Shown one piece after another: positions 8,783 to 17,968 of a DNA stretch of 64,000 nucleotides. The notes beneath the pieces are model-generated. The model made no database searches. It was given only the letters and a program-made list of their open reading frames with translations, and had not been told where the DNA came from. The position numbers were made by a program, and so were the translations under genes. The DNA lies in the NCBI GenBank assembly GCA_009694735.1, contig SHUG01000003.1, positions 19,840 through 83,839 of the forward strand. The letters run 5' to 3'. Positions within the stretch are counted from its first letter, which is position 1. The number at the start of each line of letters is the position of its first letter. This stretch comes from Acidobacteriota bacterium. GTDB taxonomy: Bacteria > Acidobacteriota > Vicinamibacteria > Vicinamibacterales > UBA2999.

Positions 8783-8997
8783 CGTCCAATTCACATGCGC
8801 GGTGGCTATACTCGACCCAAGACCATGTCTCGCCGCGCCCTTCAGCTGGTGATGATGGGCGACCAGCGTAATCCCACTGCCCGCGACGACGTCCGCGCGG
8901 CCCGTGCCGCGCGCGCACGGGGACGGTTCGACGATGCAAACGCGTTCTTCCGGGATGCGGACGGTCTGGCGCGTTGGCTCCATGTGAATGTTAACCG
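8783..8997 (-). other. attC site 7, split by an inserted copy of the TPR gene 5' region
   Basis: Right half gcgttggctccatgtgaatgttaacc (8971-8996) matches the other attC arms; a complementary arm attcacatg survives at 8789-8797. Confidence 0.6.
8801..8972 (+). repeat. Diverged, internally deleted duplicate of the TPR gene promoter and 5' end
   Basis: 8801-8837 matches 15443-15479 and 8831-8972 matches 15803-15944, joined at a cgccgcg microhomology. Confidence 0.9.
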
Positions 8998-10250: not shown

Positions 10251-10783
10251 CTAAAACGAATAGGGTTTCATCCGCACGGCCAGCGTCGTGATCTGCATGT
10301 GGCCCTCTCGACACACTGGACAGCGCGCCAGGTCGACCCCAGTAAGCCGGAGCACCAGCGCGTGCGACGATTCGGGAGGGGCCTCCTCGGTCGGCGGCTG
10401 GCCGAGCAGGTCACGACATGGGCGGACCATGTCGCGCCGCGTGCGATTGGCGAGCAGACCGAAGTGGCGAATGCGCATGAAGCCGCGGGGCACGACATGC
10501 AGCAGAAAGCGCCGGAGGAATTCGTCCGCCTCGAGGGTCATGACCTTCTCGTCCCCGGTTGCCGCGGCGACGGCACGCAGAACGACGTGCGGTCGCGCTT
10601 CAACCTCGCGTGACACAAGCAGCGCAACGCATTCACGGTGATGTTGCACGTACTCCAGGACCGCCGGCGCTCGCGAATCAGATACCGCACATACGCTTGC
10701 ACCTCGTCCTCCGACATCTGATCCGGTGATCGCCGGTAGTACCGGGCCAAGCCCGTGACGGCCGTCAGATACGTCTCGCGCGT
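10251..10783 (-). mobile_element. Internally deleted tyrosine-recombinase + IS91-family (Y2) transposase element remnant
   Basis: Recombinase N-terminal SAM-like fragment (LARYYRRSPDQMSEDEVQAYVRYL, ~10555-10783) fused to an IS91 C-terminus (MTLEADEFLRRFLLHVVPRGFMRIRHFGLLAN...CPVC). Confidence 0.8.
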
Positions 10784-12148: not shown

Positions 12149-12233
12149 CCGACGACGCTACCACAGCCGGCCGATGCGTTGGCGCCGATGGCGGAGGCTG
12201 TGTCGTGTGAGCATTTCGTCTGACTGGATTGCG

Positions 12234-12306
12234 GCATTACGATCGCGCTCACCCGTGAGCGCGCACGATAGCACCCGCGCGAGTCGGGTGCAGCGCCAAG
12301 TTGGCG
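12234..12306 (-). other. attC site 3 (GTT mutated to GTA)
   Basis: Minus strand CGCCAAC-ttggcgctgcacccg...cgggtgagcgcgatc-GTAATGC; 73 bp; close relative of the site at 14691. Confidence 0.8.
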
Positions 12307-12395
12307 CAAGATTCTTCGTCGTCGTGCTCTGTCCGGATCGGGCGCCGACGTCGGTTCGCGGGGTCGGCGCTCAGTCCGTTGTCTTCGTGTTCGCG
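12307..12395 (-). repeat. ORF-less cassette element, copy C (hairpin 1 deleted)
   Basis: Aligns to 13150-13300 with a deletion between gctc microhomologies. Confidence 0.7.
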
Positions 12396-12441
12396 CCCCG
12401 CGTCAAGCTGCAGGCAGCGCGCTGAGCTGGGGGACGTCCCC

Positions 12442-12849
12442 TCATGGATGCGAGCGTCGCCGCAGAAGGCGCGCGCGGAGTTGAACTTGGTCATGGTCGT
12501 TGATGTCCAGTAGCTCGACGGTCGCGCGTCCCTCCGAAGTCAGCCCCTTGATGGTCCCATCAGGCTAAGATGAGAAGTGCTCTCGCCACGCGTGGCGCCT
12601 GGGGTGGTAGAGCGCCACGAGAGAGCCGGTCTCGGGGTCGATCGACGCGATATTCGGGCCCTTCTTCAAGTTGCAACGGATACAGCACAAGCACAAGTTG
12701 TCGACCTCGTCTGTTCCACGATGCTGCCGACCGATGATGTGGTCGACCTGGTGAGGCAGAATCGATGCGCTCTGGGGACCGCGGCAGTACTCGCACGCAC
12801 CATGAGCGCGGCGCTGAGCCAGCTCCCGCAAATCGCTCGATACCTTCAC
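12442..12849 (-). pseudogene. HNH endonuclease with premature TAG at 12565-12567
   Basis: CEYC, QVDHII, NLCLCCIRCNLKKG; frame continues after the stop as PDGTIKGLTSEGRATVELLDIN. Confidence 0.8.
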
Positions 12850-13061
12850 GATGCCGCGCGCATCGTCCAGAACTGCTCGGCCTCCAGCTTAAGGAGGCTC
12901 AGCATGTCGTTCAAACGAACGACTTCCGAGTACTCCTTCTGATCCTCAGGAGTGAGAAGGCCCGCGGTGCTCTTCTCGGCGAGCTCTTCGACTCGTGGGG
13001 CCAAGTCCTTGCTGATGGCGTCGAGCGCCGCTTCGAGCTGCTCCAACGTGTGCTTTTCCAT
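12846..13061 (-). CDS. Small acidic helical protein coupled to the HNH gene, putative antitoxin/immunity protein
   Basis: 71 aa, RVEELAEKSTAGLLTPEDQKEY; GTGA overlap with the HNH start. Confidence 0.7.
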   Translation of the reverse strand: MEKHTLEQLEAALDAISKDLAPRVEELAEKSTAGLLTPEDQKEYSEVVRLNDMLSLLKLEAEQFWTMRAAS

Positions 13062-13149
13062 AAGGTTCTCCGTCGCCGGCACTTGCGGCAGCATGCCACC
13101 GATCCGCGGTCGCCACAAGCGCGGCACGGAGCGAGCCCGCCCAGTAGCC

Positions 13150-13302
13150 ATCGTGCTGCCCGCGCCGGATCGACCACCGTCTACGTCGGTTCACGGGGTC
13201 GGCGCTCCCCCCGGTAGGGTCGAGGCGGGCCTCATGATTGTCACGGCCCGCCCCACGCTCTTGGCTCAGTCCGTCGTTCTCTCTCCGGTTCGTTCTTTTT
13301 CC
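13150..13302 (-). repeat. ORF-less cassette element, copy B
   Basis: Contains ggcgggcc-gtga-caa-tcat-ga-ggcccgcc and cgccgaccccgtgaaccgacg; starts at the GTT of an attC. Confidence 0.7.
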
Positions 13303-13376
13303 AGCCAACGCCCGGCTTCAGCCGCGGCGGCTCTCAGCATTTCACTCGCCGCCGTCGGCTGCAAGCCGTGTTGGGC
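13303..13376 (-). other. attC site 2
   Basis: Minus strand GCCCAAC-acggcttgcagccgacggcggc...gccgccgcggctgaagccgggc-GTTGGCT; 74 bp. Confidence 0.9.
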
Positions 13377-13444
13377 GGCTCATCCAAGTCGTGCAGGGCG
13401 TCGTCAGCGCACCGTGAGACCGTTATCGACAAGGTTCAGAATTC

Positions 13445-14374
13445 CTAGTTGGACGCTCTCTCTGGCGCGGCTGGTCCCATGCCAGCAACCAGAAGCCAGA
13501 GGTCCTCATCCTTCGTCCCCTCGTAGTGCGTGCCGTTCGCAAAGTCGTGAATGTACGACCCCTTCGGCATTCCGACTGTCTTGTCCTTGTCGACGGACGA
13601 TCCCGCGCCAATGTACATGCGTCCGCCCATGACCCAGACGAATTGATCGTTGGCGTGGCGGTGCGCCGTGCTCCAGCTATTCGGTGGCCGGCGGACAAAC
13701 TGAACGTACAGGCCGGCTTTGCCCGGATCACCAAAGACATTGACGAACGTGCTGCCGTCGGCTGCTTTGGTCCACGCCATATCTTCCAGTTTCTTGGCTA
13801 CACGCGCAGTCGGGTCGACATTCGGTCCACCAGGGGCACGAGGTGCCTCGTTGGCCGGGCCGCTATTCGTCCCACCCAGTCCGATAAAGAACAGCGTCAC
13901 TCCATCTTGCCCCACGCCGTCGTAATGCATTCTTCCGGGGACTTCGCTGACAACCGTGCCGCCCCTCAGGGCATCCACTCGATTCCGATCTTGAACTGGC
14001 CCTGTGCCGGCCAGGAATGTTCCCTCGAGCACCGTGCCGTAGCGTTCCGTCGGGTGAGTGTGGGGGGCGCTCCAATTGTCGAAGGGGCGTCTCAGGAGCG
14101 AGACATAAATTCCGCCCGGTTTTGACGCGTCGCCGTAGAGCGTGAGACTTCCAGTGCCATTCCGCTCGACCCACGGAATCTCTGACGGCAGCTTGTAATC
14201 GCGGATGCTGCGATCCAGCGTGACGGGGGCCTGTGCCGCGACTGGCACAATGAGGCCAAGCTGTTTACTGATGACATCCCGCTGAGGGATTGCAGGCCAG
14301 AGCGAGACGCTCGGGCAGATTGCGAGCAGGACGAGAAATCGAAGCAGGAGCTTCTGTGATTTCGACGTTGTCAT
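13445..14374 (-). CDS. Probably secreted tandem cupin-domain protein (cassette cargo)
   Basis: Hydrophobic N-terminus; two repeats of GDxxKxGxYV...WSxxHxH...HYxG; GGAG RBS before ATG 14374. Confidence 0.75.
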   Translation of the reverse strand: MTTSKSQKLLLRFLVLLAICPSVSLWPAIPQRDVISKQLGLIVPVAAQAPVTLDRSIRDYKLPSEIPWVERNGTGSLTLYGDASKPGGIYVSLLRRPFDNWSAPHTHPTERYGTVLEGTFLAGTGPVQDRNRVDALRGGTVVSEVPGRMHYDGVGQDGVTLFFIGLGGTNSGPANEAPRAPGGPNVDPTARVAKKLEDMAWTKAADGSTFVNVFGDPGKAGLYVQFVRRPPNSWSTAHRHANDQFVWVMGGRMYIGAGSSVDKDKTVGMPKGSYIHDFANGTHYEGTKDEDLWLLVAGMGPAAPERASN

Positions 14375-14690
14375 AATTCGCTCTCCAGTTAGATGATAGT
14401 CCGCATTGGCGGGGCCGGTCACGGAAGACGCGGTGTTCCCCCTTGTCGCGTCGCCCCTTCGGATCGTGTACTTCAACCACGGGCAGGGCAGCGGATGGTT
14501 CGCGAACGGTTTGAGTGAACGACTGACCAGACATGTTCTTGACGTTGTTCCACAGCGGGGCATCGGCGACATGTGCGACGTTGGTCGCAAGAATCAGCCG
14601 CGACGTGCTCCAAGCCAACGAATCATGGCGACCAATGAGACAACTCATCGTTTTCAAAGCTCTCGCCGAAGATTCTCTGGAAACCTGCCT

Positions 14691-14763
14691 AGACAACGTT
14701 CGCGCTCACCCGCGAGCGCGCACCAGACGACCCGCGCGAGTCGGGTGGAGCGCCCTGTTGGGT
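14691..14763 (-). other. attC site 1
   Basis: Minus strand ACCCAAC-agggcgctccacccg...cgggtgagcgcgaac-GTTGTCT; 73 bp. Confidence 0.85.
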
Positions 14764-14984
14764 TCTTGTTCGTCGTCGTCGCGTTCTTGCCGTGCCTTGA
14801 TCATCCGCGCCGCCGACGCTCGGTTCGCCAGGTCGGCGGGGGAGTTCCGTTCCGGATCGTCGCCGCCTACCGCATCGACTTCCGGCGGGCCTCATGGTTC
14901 GCCACGGCCCGCCGACGCCGCGCCGGACTCGGTCGCCGTCACATCGTTCGGTTCTCTTTCGTTCGTGTCTTTCGTCTACCCAAC
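14764..14984 (-). repeat. ORF-less cassette element, copy A (complete cassette body, possible ncRNA)
   Basis: Starts GTTGGGT, exactly complementary to the ACCCAAC of its own attC; two hairpins shared with copies B and C. Confidence 0.7.
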
Positions 14985-15466
14985 GTCATTTGGGTGTCTG
15001 GTGCCAATTGCTGGTCAGCGCCCGCGGTCAAGACGCCTGCGCTTGAGTGCCACCCCCCACTCGCGCGCGTTATTGCCGTTATTCCAACCGGCCGCAAGTC
15101 CTTCTGCCCAAACGATTCGCCTCACTTGAACGACACCCGAACCCGGGAATTGGCACCGGCGCCATAACCCCGAAAATCCGTGGATAGGCAGTTGGCGCCA
15201 TTCCCGGGATTGGGGCCAGCCGGGGTTGCAAACTGCCAACCGCGGTCTCGTTCGCCGAAGCGCGCCGCGCGAAGACGTGTCATGAAACCGGAATGCTCCC
15301 TGTTGTTGAAGGCTCCTTCAGGCTTCTGGCTGGCTCCTGACGTCCTACTCGTATGCGCCTGAGTGCCGGCGGGCCCCACGAGGCGGGCCGGTCCGCCGAA
15401 GCCGCCGCTCCGCTGAGTATCCACCCCAAGGGCCGCGGCGAAGGCGGCTATACTCGACCGAAGACC

Positions 15467-17968
15467 ATGTCTCGCCGCGTCTGGTTGCTCCTGGCTTCGG
15501 TCGTGCTAACCGTCGGGCTCGCGCCGTTCGTCACGGCTGAGCAGTCGCAGAACGTCGCGGCTGCGCGGGCCAACGCCGAGAGGTCGTGGCACCGTGGGCG
15601 TCTCGACGAGATCGGCAAGTTCGCCGATGCCTTTCCGAAAGACGAAGTGCTTGCCGTCTGGCGCGCCAAGGCCACCGCGGCCCGCGGCGATTACGCCGGT
15701 GCCGAATCGGGGCTGCAACCGTTTGCCGCCGCCAATCCGGCTGGCGACGCCGCACTCGAAGTGGGACTGCTCCAGCAGTTGGTCGGGCGCCGCGTTGAGG
15801 CGCGCCGCGCCCTCCAGCTGGTCATGATGGGCGACCAGCGCAATCCCACCGCCCGCGACTACGTCCGCGCCGCCCGCGCCGCGCGCGCACTGGGACGGTT
15901 CGACGATGCAAACGCGTTCTTCCGGGATGCGGACGGTCTGGCGCCGAATGATCCGGCGATCAACACGGAGTGGGGCGACCTGTTCGTTGAGAAGTACAAC
16001 AACAAGGACGCCGCGCGGTCGTTTCAGGAAGCCCTGAAGGCCGACCCCGAGTACGGCCCGGCGCTACTCGGCATGGCGCGGTCGCTCGCCGACCAGAACC
16101 CGGCGCAGGCCGTCGGCCTGGCGCTGCAGGCCCTCAAACAGAACCCCGTCGATTTGGGCGCACACCTGTTCGTCGCCGAAATGGCGATCTACCAGGACAA
16201 GAAAAAAGACGCGCTCGAATCGATCGGCAAAGTGCTGGCGGTCAACCCGCAGCACCTCGAAGCGCTGTCGATGCAGGCGGCGCTGGCATTTGTCGAAGGA
16301 CGCACGCAGGACTACGACGCGGCGCTGGCCGCCGCGCTCGCCATTCATCCGGCCTACGGCGAGATTCATCGCGTGGTCGGGTCGGTCACCGCGCATTACT
16401 ACCGCTTTGACGAGGCGGTCGAGCATGTGCGCAAAGGCATTGCCCTGGACCGCGACAACGCCGTGGCCTATGCCGACCTCGGCGCGCACCTGATGCGCAC
16501 CGGCGACGAGCGCAACGCCCGGCGCGCGCTCGAAACGGCATTCAAGGTCGACCCGTGGAACGTCGTCACCTTCAACCTGCTCGCCCTGCTCGACACGCTG
16601 GAACCATTCGACACCATTCGCGAAGGCGACCTGGTGATCCGACTGCATCCCGACGAGAAAGACGTGATGCGGCAGTACGTGCCGCAGCTCGCCAAGGAGT
16701 CGCTCGACGCGCTCAGCAAGCGGTGGGAGTTCACACCGAAGGGCCCCATCCTGATCGAGATGTTCCCGAATCACGACGACTTCGCGGTGCGCACCCTCGG
16801 CCTGCCCGGCATGATTGGCGCGCTCGGTGCTTGCTTCGGTCGCGTGGTCACGGTCGATTCGCCGAAGGCCCGCGCGCCCGGCAGCTTCAACTGGGGCGAG
16901 ACGCTGTGGCACGAAATGGCCCACGTGATCACGCTGCAGCTGTCGAACAACCGCCTGCCGCGATGGTTGAGCGAAGGCGCGTCGGTCTACGAAGAGCGGC
17001 GCGCCCGCCAGCAGTGGGGCCGGGAAATGGACATCCCTTTCGCCCGAGCGATGGACCGCGGCAAGTTGATCAGCCTGCGCGATCTGAACTCCGGCTTCAG
17101 TAACCCGGAACAGATTTCTTACTCCTATTACCAGGCGTCACTGGTCGTCGAGCACATCGTCGACGTGCATGGCCAGGCCAAGCTGCGTGCGCTGGTCGCG
17201 GCCTACGCTGATGGCTCCGACACGGAGACGGCCATTGGCAAGGCCCTGGGCGTTGACATCGACTCATTACAGAAGACCTTTGATGGCTTTCTTGAGGGCC
17301 GCTACGCCGGCCTGCGGCGGGCGCTGGCCGTGCCGGAAGGGCTGACCGAGAAGACCCCCCTGGAACTGGTTAAGGTGATCGCCTCGGCCAATCCCGGCAG
17401 CTACACGGCGCAGATGGCACTCGGCGAAGCGCAGATCGAAAGCAGTCCCGATGGCGCCATCGCCGCATTCGAGCGTGCCGCGCAACTGATTCCGAACGTC
17501 ACCGGCGAAGACAGCCCAGAGGCGCTGATCGCGGCGGTCGCCTTGAAGAAAGGCGATAAGTCGCGCGCCGCCGCCGCCCTGGAATCCCTGAGCGGCAAGA
17601 GCAACACTGACATCGCGTCGGCCCGGCAATTGGCGACGCTGGTTGACCCCGTGAAGGAACGTAGCCGTTTGCACGTCGCCCTCAAGAGCCTGGTGGCCAT
17701 CGACCCGTTCGATGGCGCGGCCCATGCCACGCTGGGCCGTCTTGACCTTGACGCCAAGCGGACGGACGAGGCCATTCGCATGTTCCGCGTGGCCCTGGCG
17801 TCGAAGCCGCTCGACCGCGCCGGCGCGCACGCCGATCTTGCTGAGGCCCTCGCCGAGGCGGGCCAGCGCGACGAGGCGAAGAAGCAAGCGCTCGCGGCGC
17901 TCGAGATCGCCCCCACCTTCACCCGTGCGCAAGACCTGCTGCTCAGGCTCGCCCAGGGCAGTCGTTGA
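15467..17968 (+). CDS. Secreted TPR-repeat protein with a central peptidase MA-like (HEXXH) domain
   Basis: Signal peptide; many TPRs; WHEMAH...PRWLSEG; TATACT upstream. Confidence 0.85.
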   Translation: MSRRVWLLLASVVLTVGLAPFVTAEQSQNVAAARANAERSWHRGRLDEIGKFADAFPKDEVLAVWRAKATAARGDYAGAESGLQPFAAANPAGDAALEVGLLQQLVGRRVEARRALQLVMMGDQRNPTARDYVRAARAARALGRFDDANAFFRDADGLAPNDPAINTEWGDLFVEKYNNKDAARSFQEALKADPEYGPALLGMARSLADQNPAQAVGLALQALKQNPVDLGAHLFVAEMAIYQDKKKDALESIGKVLAVNPQHLEALSMQAALAFVEGRTQDYDAALAAALAIHPAYGEIHRVVGSVTAHYYRFDEAVEHVRKGIALDRDNAVAYADLGAHLMRTGDERNARRALETAFKVDPWNVVTFNLLALLDTLEPFDTIREGDLVIRLHPDEKDVMRQYVPQLAKESLDALSKRWEFTPKGPILIEMFPNHDDFAVRTLGLPGMIGALGACFGRVVTVDSPKARAPGSFNWGETLWHEMAHVITLQLSNNRLPRWLSEGASVYEERRARQQWGREMDIPFARAMDRGKLISLRDLNSGFSNPEQISYSYYQASLVVEHIVDVHGQAKLRALVAAYADGSDTETAIGKALGVDIDSLQKTFDGFLEGRYAGLRRALAVPEGLTEKTPLELVKVIASANPGSYTAQMALGEAQIESSPDGAIAAFERAAQLIPNVTGEDSPEALIAAVALKKGDKSRAAAALESLSGKSNTDIASARQLATLVDPVKERSRLHVALKSLVAIDPFDGAAHATLGRLDLDAKRTDEAIRMFRVALASKPLDRAGAHADLAEALAEAGQRDEAKKQALAALEIAPTFTRAQDLLLRLAQGSR

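Follow-up and report, generated by a model that had tools for sequence, protein, structure and literature searches.

Segments A, B and C of the window, which is the whole stretch of 64,000 nucleotides of Acidobacteriota DNA analysed here, belong to a real family, not listed before, of small Acidobacteria integron cassettes that have no gene. Judged from its sequence the family is probably a mobile structured RNA. The explanation that we favour, with about even confidence, is that these undescribed, Vicinamibacteria-like cassettes carry a protein-binding RNA module that is made by read-through and likely acts in cis. Other explanations, in particular an action of the hairpins at the level of DNA, are weighed against it below.

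Cassettes of the window

The window contains an array with five minus-strand attC matches between 9569 and 14764. A, B and C lie on the minus strand where the initial annotation had placed them, and all features of the array described here are on that strand. At its head is an attI-side integron platform without an integrase gene (14985..15215), into which cassette A is inserted at the crossover point, between …ACCCAAATGAC and GTTGGGT. This platform and its integrase-proximal counterpart in the related, intI-bearing locus L134 are 66.5% identical across 239 nt (E 4e-12). Upstream of A there is no match to the attC model on the minus strand, and the ORFs in 15015-15424 have no Pfam match. No intI lies beside the attI platform in the window, and fragments of TIGR02249 occur only at the ends of other contigs. 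Integron arrays that lack an integrase are known, and intI is present in the related loci L153, L180, L134, L191, L107 and L176 and in genomes G073 and G094.

Cassette A (14691..14984, 294 bp) is the first cassette behind the attI platform. It is complete and gene-less, and is made up of a leader, hairpin 1, a linker, hairpin 2, a tail and the attC. Its ends are complementary, with GTTGGGT at the start and ACCCAAC ahead of the attC, which agrees with its earlier description as a complete first-position cassette with matched ends. A full-length BLAST homologue in genome G073 is 76% identical to it over 292 nt. The leader (14914..14984), by direct reading, is purine-rich and T-poor with ACGAA/AGAC repeats. 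Hairpin 1 (14884..14913) has an 8-bp stem, the apex GUGG-CGAA-CCAU and a GA bulge, and reads GGCGGGCC-GTGG-CGAA-CCAT-GA-GGCCCGCC from 14913 to 14884. Hairpin 2 (14810..14839) has another 8-bp stem (CCGCCGAC/GUCGGCGG) under the same apex as hairpin 1, here CUGG-CGAA-CCG, and reads CCGCCGAC-CTGGCGAACCGAGC-GTCGGCGG from 14839 to 14810. The attC (14691..14764) scores 74.9 bits with the attC covariance model R2 (E 5.9e-15).

Segments B and C are the two ends of one cassette, as no attC lies between them. This cassette runs from 13309 to 12234 (1,076 bp). Its start is the R' sequence GTTGGCT of the attC of the adjoining Cupin_7 cassette (13303..13377; 60.6 bits with R2, Cupin_7 match), and it is closed by an attC at 12234..12307 (64.1 bits) that is kin to the attC of A. 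The initial annotation had described three ORF-less segments; this is true of A, but B and C turn out to be parts of a single ORF-bearing cassette. The cargo between them (12441..13061) consists of a 71-aa ORF (12846-13061) without a Pfam match and an HNH endonuclease gene (12441-12849; PF01844, E 6.4e-9) with one in-frame stop on translation.

Segment B (13150..13302; repeat families D16 and D18) has the leader, hairpin 1 and a decayed second hairpin, and stands ahead of the two ORFs. Its hairpin 1 (13224-13252) reads GGCGGGCC-GTGA-CAA-TCAT-GA-GGCCCGCC from 13252 to 13224, with an A-U exchange and a 3-nt apex; the reported change of an inner-stem pair from G-C in A to A-T in B is confirmed in the sequence. 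Segment C (12308..12395; direct reading and D18) has a leader remnant, ACGGACTGAGC, which is also in B, a variant second hairpin (12343-12372) and the tail. The second-hairpin variants of B (13207 to 13178, with a decayed 3' arm) and C (12372 to 12343) are 90% alike (D18) and are related to hairpin 2 of A. The hairpin model R1 scores 49.7 and 41.6 bits at hairpins 1 and 2 of A, 39.0 bits at hairpin 1 of B (13218-13258) and at most 17 bits elsewhere in the 64 kb. The hairpin of C obtains no score with it, and the loop variant of C is seen in this genome only, among the sequences compared. C is a remnant of the family. The attC of A and the one behind C share 86% identity across 66 nt (D3), and both match the covariance model.

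Relatives and their place in integron arrays

Relatives were gathered by pattern scans whose patterns required GTGGCGAAC, and attC sites were called with the covariance model R2, made from the relatives, together with an nhmmer profile. A scan for attC sites by AAC…GTT boxes and fold was dropped, being swamped by GC-rich hairpins, as was a count by gapless complement, which missed nearly all sites. At least 99 instances, at least 92 of them unique, were found by the pattern scans, and the unique ones are nearly all situated in cassette arrays. Cassette-type loci make up 10 of the 41 genome loci and lie in seven MAGs, all labelled Acidobacteriota/Vicinamibacter-, and at least 80 metagenome loci have the family. 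Named genome matches are all to Acidobacteriota. The distribution is patchy, with three carriers among 151 genomes of relatives, and there are no matches to the family in viral contigs or in the plasmids of PLSDB.

The association of the element with attC is tight. The family loci (344 kb) contain 269 matches to the attC model, and an attC has the same orientation as the element in 206 cases and the opposite orientation in one. In 73 of the 92 unique instances, among the matches listed, an attC starts no more than 330 nt downstream, and 34 aligned family attCs have AAC…GTT boxes and compensating L boxes. Where cassettes could be delimited, 28 of 35 are 211-352 nt long, and hairpin 1 is located 69-132 nt past the cassette start. 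The cassettes are bounded at the G|TT crossover, and pairing of the helix formed by their ends holds in 97% of cells, the ends of relatives being GTTCGGAG/CTCCGAAC and similar. Two copies of the family each are present in loci L082, L097, L144, L161, L172 and L186; those of L172 and L144 are tandem and identical, with cores 251 nt and 211 nt apart, respectively. Family cassettes that bear an ORF are rare and varied (six cases with room to judge). The ORFs of the next cassettes downstream (39) are diverse and include no fixed partner gene; a BrnT-like toxin is next in four, a count in which L121 and L191 are one array recovered twice.

The element is the first cassette in six distinct arrays of the nine that are linked to an integrase, no attC lying between intI and the element in L153, L180, L134, L191 (the same array as L121), L107 and L176, although this count comes from short contigs and is biased to early positions. 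Homology to the attI platform is found directly upstream of 15 of the 92 unique instances, window included, among the matches listed.

Structure, strand and coding capacity

On the sense strand the family has a common plan, in which one or two long imperfect hairpins are set among purine-rich, T-poor single-stranded stretches that contain CGGAA/ACGRA repeats. The hairpin cap common to the family is (G/C)UGG-CGAA-CCA-UGR, and at least three different stems bear this apex. The invariance of the hairpin-1 loop is in part due to ascertainment, because the search patterns demanded it; GGCGAA is also found in 41 of 58 second hairpins in relatives, though there the search pattern had no such demand. 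The linkers are divergent, whereas conservation extends to the leader, to the loop and to how far the loop lies from the start of the cassette. In 33 relatives the sense strand is enriched 7-16-fold in CGGAA, ACGGA and ACGAA over the window background (per kb, CGGAA 9.8 against 1.1 and ACGGA 8.6 against 0.55), and a CACGA-N-GA…CGGAA motif recurs in leader, linker and tail. Compared by eye alone, the loop did not fit R boxes, tRNA T-arms, primer-binding sites, K-turns or ribozyme cores.

Across 63 hairpins 92.4% of cells are paired, whereas shuffles reach 70.7% and slid controls 23-49%, and the covariation score is 0.537 against 0.199. Much of this covariation stems from two paralogous hairpin types and so represents few events. 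Within the hairpin-1 type the core stem is altered in seven of 44 rows and pairing is retained in all seven (U-A three times, a G-C swap once, a third stem twice and U-G once), and complementarity of the outer-helix triplet is seen in 21 of 29 rows, where shuffles give 9.8. The long type (14 sequences) has a modest six covarying pairs under a structure taken from the same alignment, a number that was reached in 15 of the 500 shuffles. Overall the covariation is genuine though thin, and is mostly that of one loop on different stems, the stems themselves being strongly conserved in sequence. Conservation of the stems beside divergent linkers would fit sequence-specific recognition, possibly of DNA, equally with pairing in an RNA.

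The strand can be addressed through wobble pairs. There are 52 G-U against seven A-C, and 44 against nine in the long type; this excess points to the sense strand of the array, and the preference of G-U pairs for the minus strand that had first been noted holds across many sequences. The sense strand also folds with lower energy than the antisense (alifold -64.8 against -60.1; mean MFE -127 against -114 kcal/mol). Folding energy is otherwise non-discriminating in such GC-rich DNA. The MFE of cassette A gives no signal relative to dinucleotide shuffles (z = +0.39 sense, +0.18 antisense), and the flanks of hairpin 1 are interchangeable, with -39.9 kcal/mol for cognate and -39.2 to -40.2 kcal/mol for non-cognate pairs. 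Shuffled flanks are merely some 2.6 kcal/mol worse, and a permutation of outer-helix energies (443 of 2000) shows no cognate advantage.

A protein-coding reading of the family was rejected on frame statistics. The sole sense ORF of at least 40 aa in cassette A has 68 aa (14689-14895), starts at an ATG in the hairpin-1 loop and runs out through the attC; this ATG is not kept in relatives and the ORF has no Pfam match. The spacing of hairpins 1 and 2 modulo 3 (25/10/6 over 41 rows) is not frame-keeping, and the distance from cassette start to hairpin 1, again modulo 3, is distributed 28/25/24. A frame through TGG-CGA-ACC is open in 22 of 47 cassettes, the hairpins are mutually out of frame in 31 of 41, and complete ORFs in family cassettes have 7-89 aa on either strand.

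No sigma-70-like promoter was found within A, B or C, in a scan confined to sigma-70 among the sigma factors; between 12200 and 15500 such matches occur only at the cupin gene and in the platform. There are likewise no terminators in A, B and C, hairpins 1 and 2 included, the sequence after the hairpins being G/C-rich, and the T content of the sense strand is 11.7%. Contigs from four soil RNA runs cover about 13300 to 14453, that is the cupin cassette and its attC, and 14506-15300 is uncovered. Rfam 15 has no match in the window and none in 16 family loci at the gathering threshold, and a comparison of 12200-15100 at E <= 5 gave chance-level matches only.

The initial interpretation is borne out in part. 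These results support its view of a mobile, structured element that integron cassettes carry, since the homologues show some, if thin, covariation, match nothing in Rfam, keep no common reading frame and are bound to attC sites, and the argument from G-U pairs holds.

Possible roles of the element

If the family acts as we favour, its RNA would be made by read-through from the integron promoter, as it shows no promoter or terminator of its own. The RNA would bind a protein, and the one or two identical loops may be the recognised parts. It would most likely act in cis, as a leader of the array transcript that alters the elongation, stability or processing of this transcript; this is suggested by the frequent position of the element first behind attI and by the location of B ahead of ORFs. 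The cassette form would let the integrase move and copy the module. It is also possible, though rather unlikely, that the element serves the entire array as a portable leader RNA, which the integrase would drop at attI, right behind the integron promoter. The twin-loop hairpins in the nascent untranslated RNA might then recruit a host factor or touch RNA polymerase, and either elongation would be changed, by anti-Rho/antitermination or attenuation, or the stability of the array transcript. The HK022 put and EAR RNAs are cis-acting processive antitermination RNAs whose hairpins form in the nascent transcript near the start of long operons and which have no gene of their own; twin hairpins and an early position would be shared with them, in a likeness of architecture and position only.

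It is also possible, though we regard it as rather improbable, that the family is a selfish cassette whose hairpins act in single- or double-stranded DNA to raise excision, integration or copying, with no useful product. An explanation of this kind was proposed for the paralogous non-coding cassettes of Vibrio in the account of Boucher 2006 (PMC1382264). The frequent first position beside attI, which is the landing site of new insertions, would be expected of such a cassette, as would the tandem identical copies and several copies per array, the patchy occurrence, the near-invariant stems between divergent linkers and the failure to detect a promoter or terminator of its own. Integron integrases, however, use the folded bottom strand of attC, whereas the wobble pairs favour the sense (top) strand. 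Moreover, an attC alone would suffice for mobility, yet leader, loop and distance of the loop from the start are conserved, and the hairpins lack the organisation of R and L boxes and are unmatched by the attC model.

It appears distinctly unlikely that the family is a small RNA acting in trans to titrate a global RNA-binding protein, as CsrB/RsmZ do, with repeated GGA motifs in single-stranded stretches and the loops as binding sites. The enrichment of CGGAA and ACGGA, the recurrent CACGA-N-GA…CGGAA motif and the identical apical loops are consistent with it. Against this, CsrA (PF02599) is absent from the three carriers G000 (85.7% complete), G073 (86%) and G094 (100%), the loops read GUGGCGAACCAUGA and have no GGA, the leader of cassette A in the window has ACGAA rather than ACGGA, and a promoter and terminator of its own, which such an RNA would need, were not found. 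It is very doubtful that the family serves as a promoter or silencer cassette, with a sense or antisense promoter as in gene-less Vibrionaceae and oral-metagenome cassettes. Promoter-active gene-less cassettes are documented in the accounts of PMC11014356 and PMC6557892, and the diverse downstream cassettes would suit a general expression module, but no sigma-70-like site lies inside A, B or C in the scan limited to that type, the low T content leaves little room for a -10 box on either strand, and a promoter would not be expected to have a conserved apex with compensatory stem changes. A decayed or very small coding cassette, or chance hairpins in GC-rich DNA, is scarcely credible: at least one frame of every cassette body is free of stops (74-104 codons), the hairpin-1 loop varies at would-be first or third codon bases in one frame and the MFE of A is that of shuffles, but stop-free frames are expected at 12% T and are equal between strands (17 and 16), the frame and ORF data above run counter to coding, and chance cannot explain at least 92 unique copies with position and orientation fixed in their cassettes.

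The favoured RNA reading and its alternatives concern what is a further case of a known class, that of non-coding cassette families. Those of Vibrio, as described in PMC1382264 and PMC11014356, are likewise small, have an attC and no gene, are conserved over their whole length, are repeated in arrays and are confined to one lineage, and the same two readings, selfish or useful to the integron, have been proposed for them there. The present family differs in belonging to another phylum, with no sequence likeness, and, compared by description, in its defined hairpin plan, with one apex on different stems, and its sense-strand bias. It is also without promoter-like sequence, whereas some Vibrio cassettes have shown promoter activity according to PMC11014356. 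A cassette-borne non-coding RNA that spreads between species is sRNA-Xcc1 of Xanthomonas, reported by Chen et al. 2011 as cited in PMC12444791. By that account its cassette also holds symE, and the RNA is directed against the Pc promoter and is under regulation of its own, in contrast to the present element, which is mostly alone in its cassette, always directed with the array, and has no promoter seen and no Rfam match. The DUF1874 and Transposase-resistance motifs (PMC5737381) are likewise structured single-strand motifs in consecutive intergenic regions of arrays. Weinberg et al. 2017 (PMC5737381) state of such attC-like motifs that RNA and single-stranded DNA are indistinguishable by sequence alone, and these two are, or may be, attC sites themselves; the present hairpins lie inside the cassette body beside a separate, ordinary attC. 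The main texts of the literature searched gave no description of a structured RNA of Acidobacteria cassettes.

Gene-less cassettes make up a sizeable part of chromosomal integron arrays, 6-49% in Vibrio by the figures of Boucher 2006 (PMC1382264). The present family is a second well-defined gene-less case, in another phylum, and offers features that can be mutated: a common loop, two stems, repeated single-stranded motifs and many natural variants. To our knowledge no function other than promoter activity, in some Vibrio and oral cassettes, has so far been shown for gene-less cassettes. If RNA is the active form, the family would provide a new structured motif that Rfam lacks, and integrons would mobilise RNA modules; if it should prove to be a portable leader, integrons would shuffle, besides genes, a gene-less control module that sets the expression of the array. 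An action as DNA would make it a model for selfish cassettes. In both cases the outcome would bear on the expression and upkeep of integron arrays.

Segments A, B and C and their array

Read directly on the minus strand, segments A, B and C have the layout that the initial annotation described. The body of A (14984->14765) is composed of an A/G-rich, T-poor leader, hairpin 1 (14913->14884; GGCGGGCC-GTGG-CGAA-CCAT-GA-GGCCCGCC), a linker, hairpin 2 (14839->14810; CCGCCGAC-CTGGCGAACCGAGC-GTCGGCGG) and a tail, and is followed by an attC site (14764->14691) that scores 74.9 bits with R2, the attC covariance model built from relatives. A is indeed a complete cassette, 294 bp long with complementary ends. 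Hairpin 1 of B (13252->13224) has a 3-nt apex and carries the compensatory change noticed earlier, its inner G-C pair being swapped for A-T; B also has a decayed second hairpin, and C a variant second hairpin and tail. A repeat finder independently recovered hairpin 1 in A and B (family D16) and the second hairpin in B and C (D18, 90% alike), and the attC sites of A and C, described as near-identical, are 86% alike (D3). The view that the segments lack ORFs holds for A, a gene-less cassette, but not for B (13150-13302) and C (12307-12395). R2 found no attC between these two in the window, and they share one cassette of 1,076 bp (13309->12234, minus strand) whose other contents are a 71-aa ORF and an HNH gene interrupted by one in-frame stop. 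Since the short string ACGGACTGAGC, the variant hairpin and the first part of the tail occur in both B and C, this cassette looks like a family unit with a two-gene insert or fusion, followed by a second unit without hairpin 1. In the HNH endonuclease gene (12441-12849, minus strand) the ORF stops at 12565, but beyond the stop the frame still encodes what is typical of an HNH C-terminus as far as about 12441; the gene is probably a pseudogene.

The minus-strand cassette array runs from 14984 to 8972. Further R2 matches lie at 13377-13303, 12307-12234, 10961-10878 and 9647-9569 (E-values of R2, and of the family hairpin covariance model R1, are rough), and by eye two more attCs of another type can be made out, one at about 11693->11620 and a truncated one at 8993->8972. 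The cargo is typical for such arrays: a secreted Cupin_7 protein, the HNH gene, HicA/HicB, VapB/PIN and a Y2 (IS91-type) transposase fragment (10251-10649, minus strand), part of which (10450-10492) is common to family locus L137 (1988-2030). The Cupin_7 cassette (13399-14453), the neighbour of A, has its own promoter-like site (14422->14393). It occurs at 90-99% identity in contigs of four soil RNA-library runs, which cover this cassette only and whose presence there does not prove transcription, and about half of the words of a 2-kb query were found in several soil metagenomes. Compared with the host genome, the Cupin_7 cassette is much more widely distributed.

A gene-less cassette family with a conserved hairpin plan

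The segments belong to a family of gene-less cassettes that are mobile, keep one orientation and have a conserved hairpin plan on the sense strand, that is, in the reading direction of the array. BLAST against 100 relatives detected a full-length cassette in genome G073 (76% over 292 nt) and partial matches in G073 and G094. The pattern GGYCGTGGCGAACNNTNAGGCC, applied to one genome per species, gave 41 loci, of which 10 (12 matches) showed the plan of a family cassette on inspection by eye; the 7 MAGs that contain them all carry the labels Acidobacteriota, Vicinamibacterales or Vicinamibacteraceae. The remaining 31 stand alone in unrelated DNA that mostly looks coding and were classed by eye as chance. 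A stricter pattern returned at least 80 loci from metagenome contigs, and the genome and metagenome total is at least 99 instances, at least 92 of them unique. Among 151 relatives' genomes R1 found the element only in three (the host's own, G073 and G094) and in 0 of 36 others of the same genus, which is to be read as not found rather than absent, as MAGs often miss arrays. Viral contigs and plasmids gave no matches.

Family loci are dense arrays, with 269 attC matches in 344 kb. An attC starts at most 330 nt downstream in 73 of the 92 listed unique instances, and matches to an nhmmer attC profile have the orientation of the element in 206 cases and the opposite one in 1, so that the proposed association with attC sites is borne out. 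Thirteen instances had no attC on either side, 7 of them cut by a contig end. Delimited cassettes measured 211-352 nt in 28 of 35 cases, and two copies per array are common, with tandem copies in L172 (251 nt apart) and L144 (211 nt apart).

Between the GTT at the cassette start and the hairpin-1 core there are 69-132 nt, in most cases 75-95 nt. A second hairpin is present in 58 of the 92 listed unique instances, and 41 of the 58 have GGCGAA in its loop, where the search pattern did not require it. For the commonest long type RNAalifold (14 sequences) predicts two long imperfect hairpin domains, one in which CGAGGCC…GGCCUCG encloses hairpin 1 and one in which UCCGG-…CGUCGCC, paired with GGCGACG…CCGGA, encloses hairpin 2. 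Linkers between the domains are purine-rich, and leader, linker and tail have the motif CACGA-N-GA…CGGAA in common. On the sense strand (G 0.37, C 0.29, A 0.23, T 0.12) CGGAA, ACGGA and ACGAA are enriched 7-16x.

When 63 hairpins (44 of hairpin-1 and 19 of hairpin-2 type) were aligned without gaps, 92.4% of cells were paired; shuffles reached 70.7% and slid controls 23-49%. The covariation score was 0.537 against 0.199. Most of the covariation comes from one apex, the (G/C)UGG-CGAA-CCA-UGR loop motif, placed on several stems (GGCGGGCC/GGCCCGCC, CCGCCGAC/GUCGGCGG and a third, CGCCGCC/GGCGGCG), and represents few evolutionary events. Core-stem changes were found in 7 of 44 hairpin-1 rows, with pairing kept in all 7. 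A variable triplet of the outer helix was complementary in 21 of 29 rows, compared with 9.8 (maximum 17) in 2000 shuffles, its covariation being mainly one C-G/G-C swap between two subfamilies. Covariation among homologues, proposed as a check on the structure, is present but sparse: the stems keep pairing when they change, the events are few, and the long type (14 sequences) gives a modest signal of 6 pairs, equalled in 15 of 500 shuffles. The claim that G-U pairs favour the minus strand was upheld, G-U cells outnumbering A-C cells by 52 to 7 in the hairpin alignment and by 44 to 9 on a structure predicted from the sense strand, a count biased by that choice. The sense strand also folds better than the antisense, for the consensus and for single sequences. 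Several observations count against a structural reading. In folding energy cassette A does not surpass its own shuffles, cognate flanks had no advantage in flank-swap tests, stem sequences hardly vary, and the constancy of the hairpin-1 loop was partly built in by the search patterns. Taken together, sense-strand hairpin formation is well supported and the outer helices are plausible. Such a sequence would fit either RNA or top-strand DNA; the integron integrase uses the bottom strand, which makes RNA the simpler reading.

Array position, attI platform and the missing integrase

Among the matches listed, ten family loci have a close integrase gene (intI). In one of them, L115, the element lies beyond the integrase 3' end in the integrase's own orientation, and for this reason was assigned to another array and left out. 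The element is the first cassette in 6 of the 9 distinct intI-linked arrays (L153, L180, L134, L191, which is the L121 array, L107 and L176), pointing away from intI with no attC between them, while in L157 it takes second place, in L073 third and in L166 a later one, a count that short contigs bias towards early positions. Homology to the attI platform lies directly upstream in 15 of the 92 listed instances, the window included, and a few more have other attI types upstream (by eye). A preference for first position is suggestive only.

In the window, the stretch 14985-15215 matches the integrase-proximal attI platform of L134 with 66.5% identity over 239 nt (E 4e-12), and no integrase gene lies beyond it. 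A is therefore the first cassette after an attI that has no integrase, which agrees with the first position assigned to it earlier. Array and platform together lie between two copies of the 5' end of a TPR/peptidase-MA gene (8801-8972 and 15443-15944, plus strand; 8801-8837 and 15443-15479 are 95% alike, 8831-8972 and 15803-15944 94%). The left copy is without about 330 nt, and the last attC is truncated exactly at its start. This arrangement suggests that the array was inserted or rearranged at the gene, which may be the reason for the absent integrase. Between platform and TPR gene start there is a GC-rich inverted repeat (15361-15405) that is 73% like hairpin 1 of A (D12) and does not contain the family loop motif. 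The MAG that contains the window has integron integrase gene fragments at the ends of four contigs (C123, C165, C163 and C2), so it includes at least one integron at whose platform the assembly broke.

A promoter-like TTGCNN-N17-GATAAT, seen by eye, is conserved some 100 nt ahead of the attI crossover in L153, L180, L191/L121, L073 and L176. It points into the array and is likely to be the integron promoter (Pc) of this group. Its window counterpart (about 15097-15070, TTGCGG…CAATAA) is weaker and was missed by a consensus promoter scan. The platforms (window 14985-15330, L134) also contain several direct repeats, (A/T)TGGCGCC…CCACCTAT, the last abutting the crossover; these may be integrase or regulator binding sites. 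The hairpin-apex motif ATGGCGAACC is found within the L134 and L150 platforms as well, which may be chance.

Possible function of the cassettes

That the family is coding or arose by chance is hardly credible. Against coding, hairpins 1 and 2 fall in different frames in 31 of 41 rows, distances from the cassette start to the hairpin are spread evenly modulo 3, only 22 of 47 cassettes have an open frame through the loop, and stop-free frames are alike on both strands, as expected at 12% T, so that the claim of no shared reading frame stands. ORFs inside family cassettes are rare, no link to a particular neighbouring gene is fixed, and comparison with Rfam, suggested earlier, matched no known RNA family.

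A function of some kind at the RNA level has, in our judgement, an even chance of being correct. Most simply, the cassette RNA would be made as part of the array transcript, because A, B and C have neither a sigma-70-like promoter (consensus scan) nor a U-tract terminator, the elements are oriented with the array and often first behind Pc, and B precedes ORFs. That different stems carry identical apical loops suggests a loop-reading factor, for which the two loop copies would be two binding sites. Our preferred reading is an RNA module that binds a protein and acts in cis on the array transcript, at the level of elongation, stability or processing. A cassette that is selfish at the DNA level would agree with first position, tandem copies and invariant stems, but the strand bias speaks against it, and we regard it as rather unlikely. 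An RNA acting in trans as a sponge is improbable; the case of a CsrA sponge was rejected, CsrA not being found in three carrier genomes. Some gene-less cassettes are described as having promoter activity (PMC11014356; PMC6557892); that the present cassettes serve as promoters is very improbable.

We found no published description of this family in the main-text literature. The accounts of Vibrio report conserved, paralogous, lineage-restricted non-coding cassettes with the same debate over selfish or useful roles (PMC1382264). The cassette-borne sRNA-Xcc1, as described, differs in sharing its cassette with symE and in pointing against Pc (PMC12444791), and the Rfam DUF1874 and Transposase-resistance motifs are presented as attC-like sites (PMC5737381). 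The Acidobacteriota hairpin cassettes join the known gene-less cassettes, and what is new is the phylum, the sequence and a definite plan of two hairpins that share an apex, together with a possible preference for the first position.
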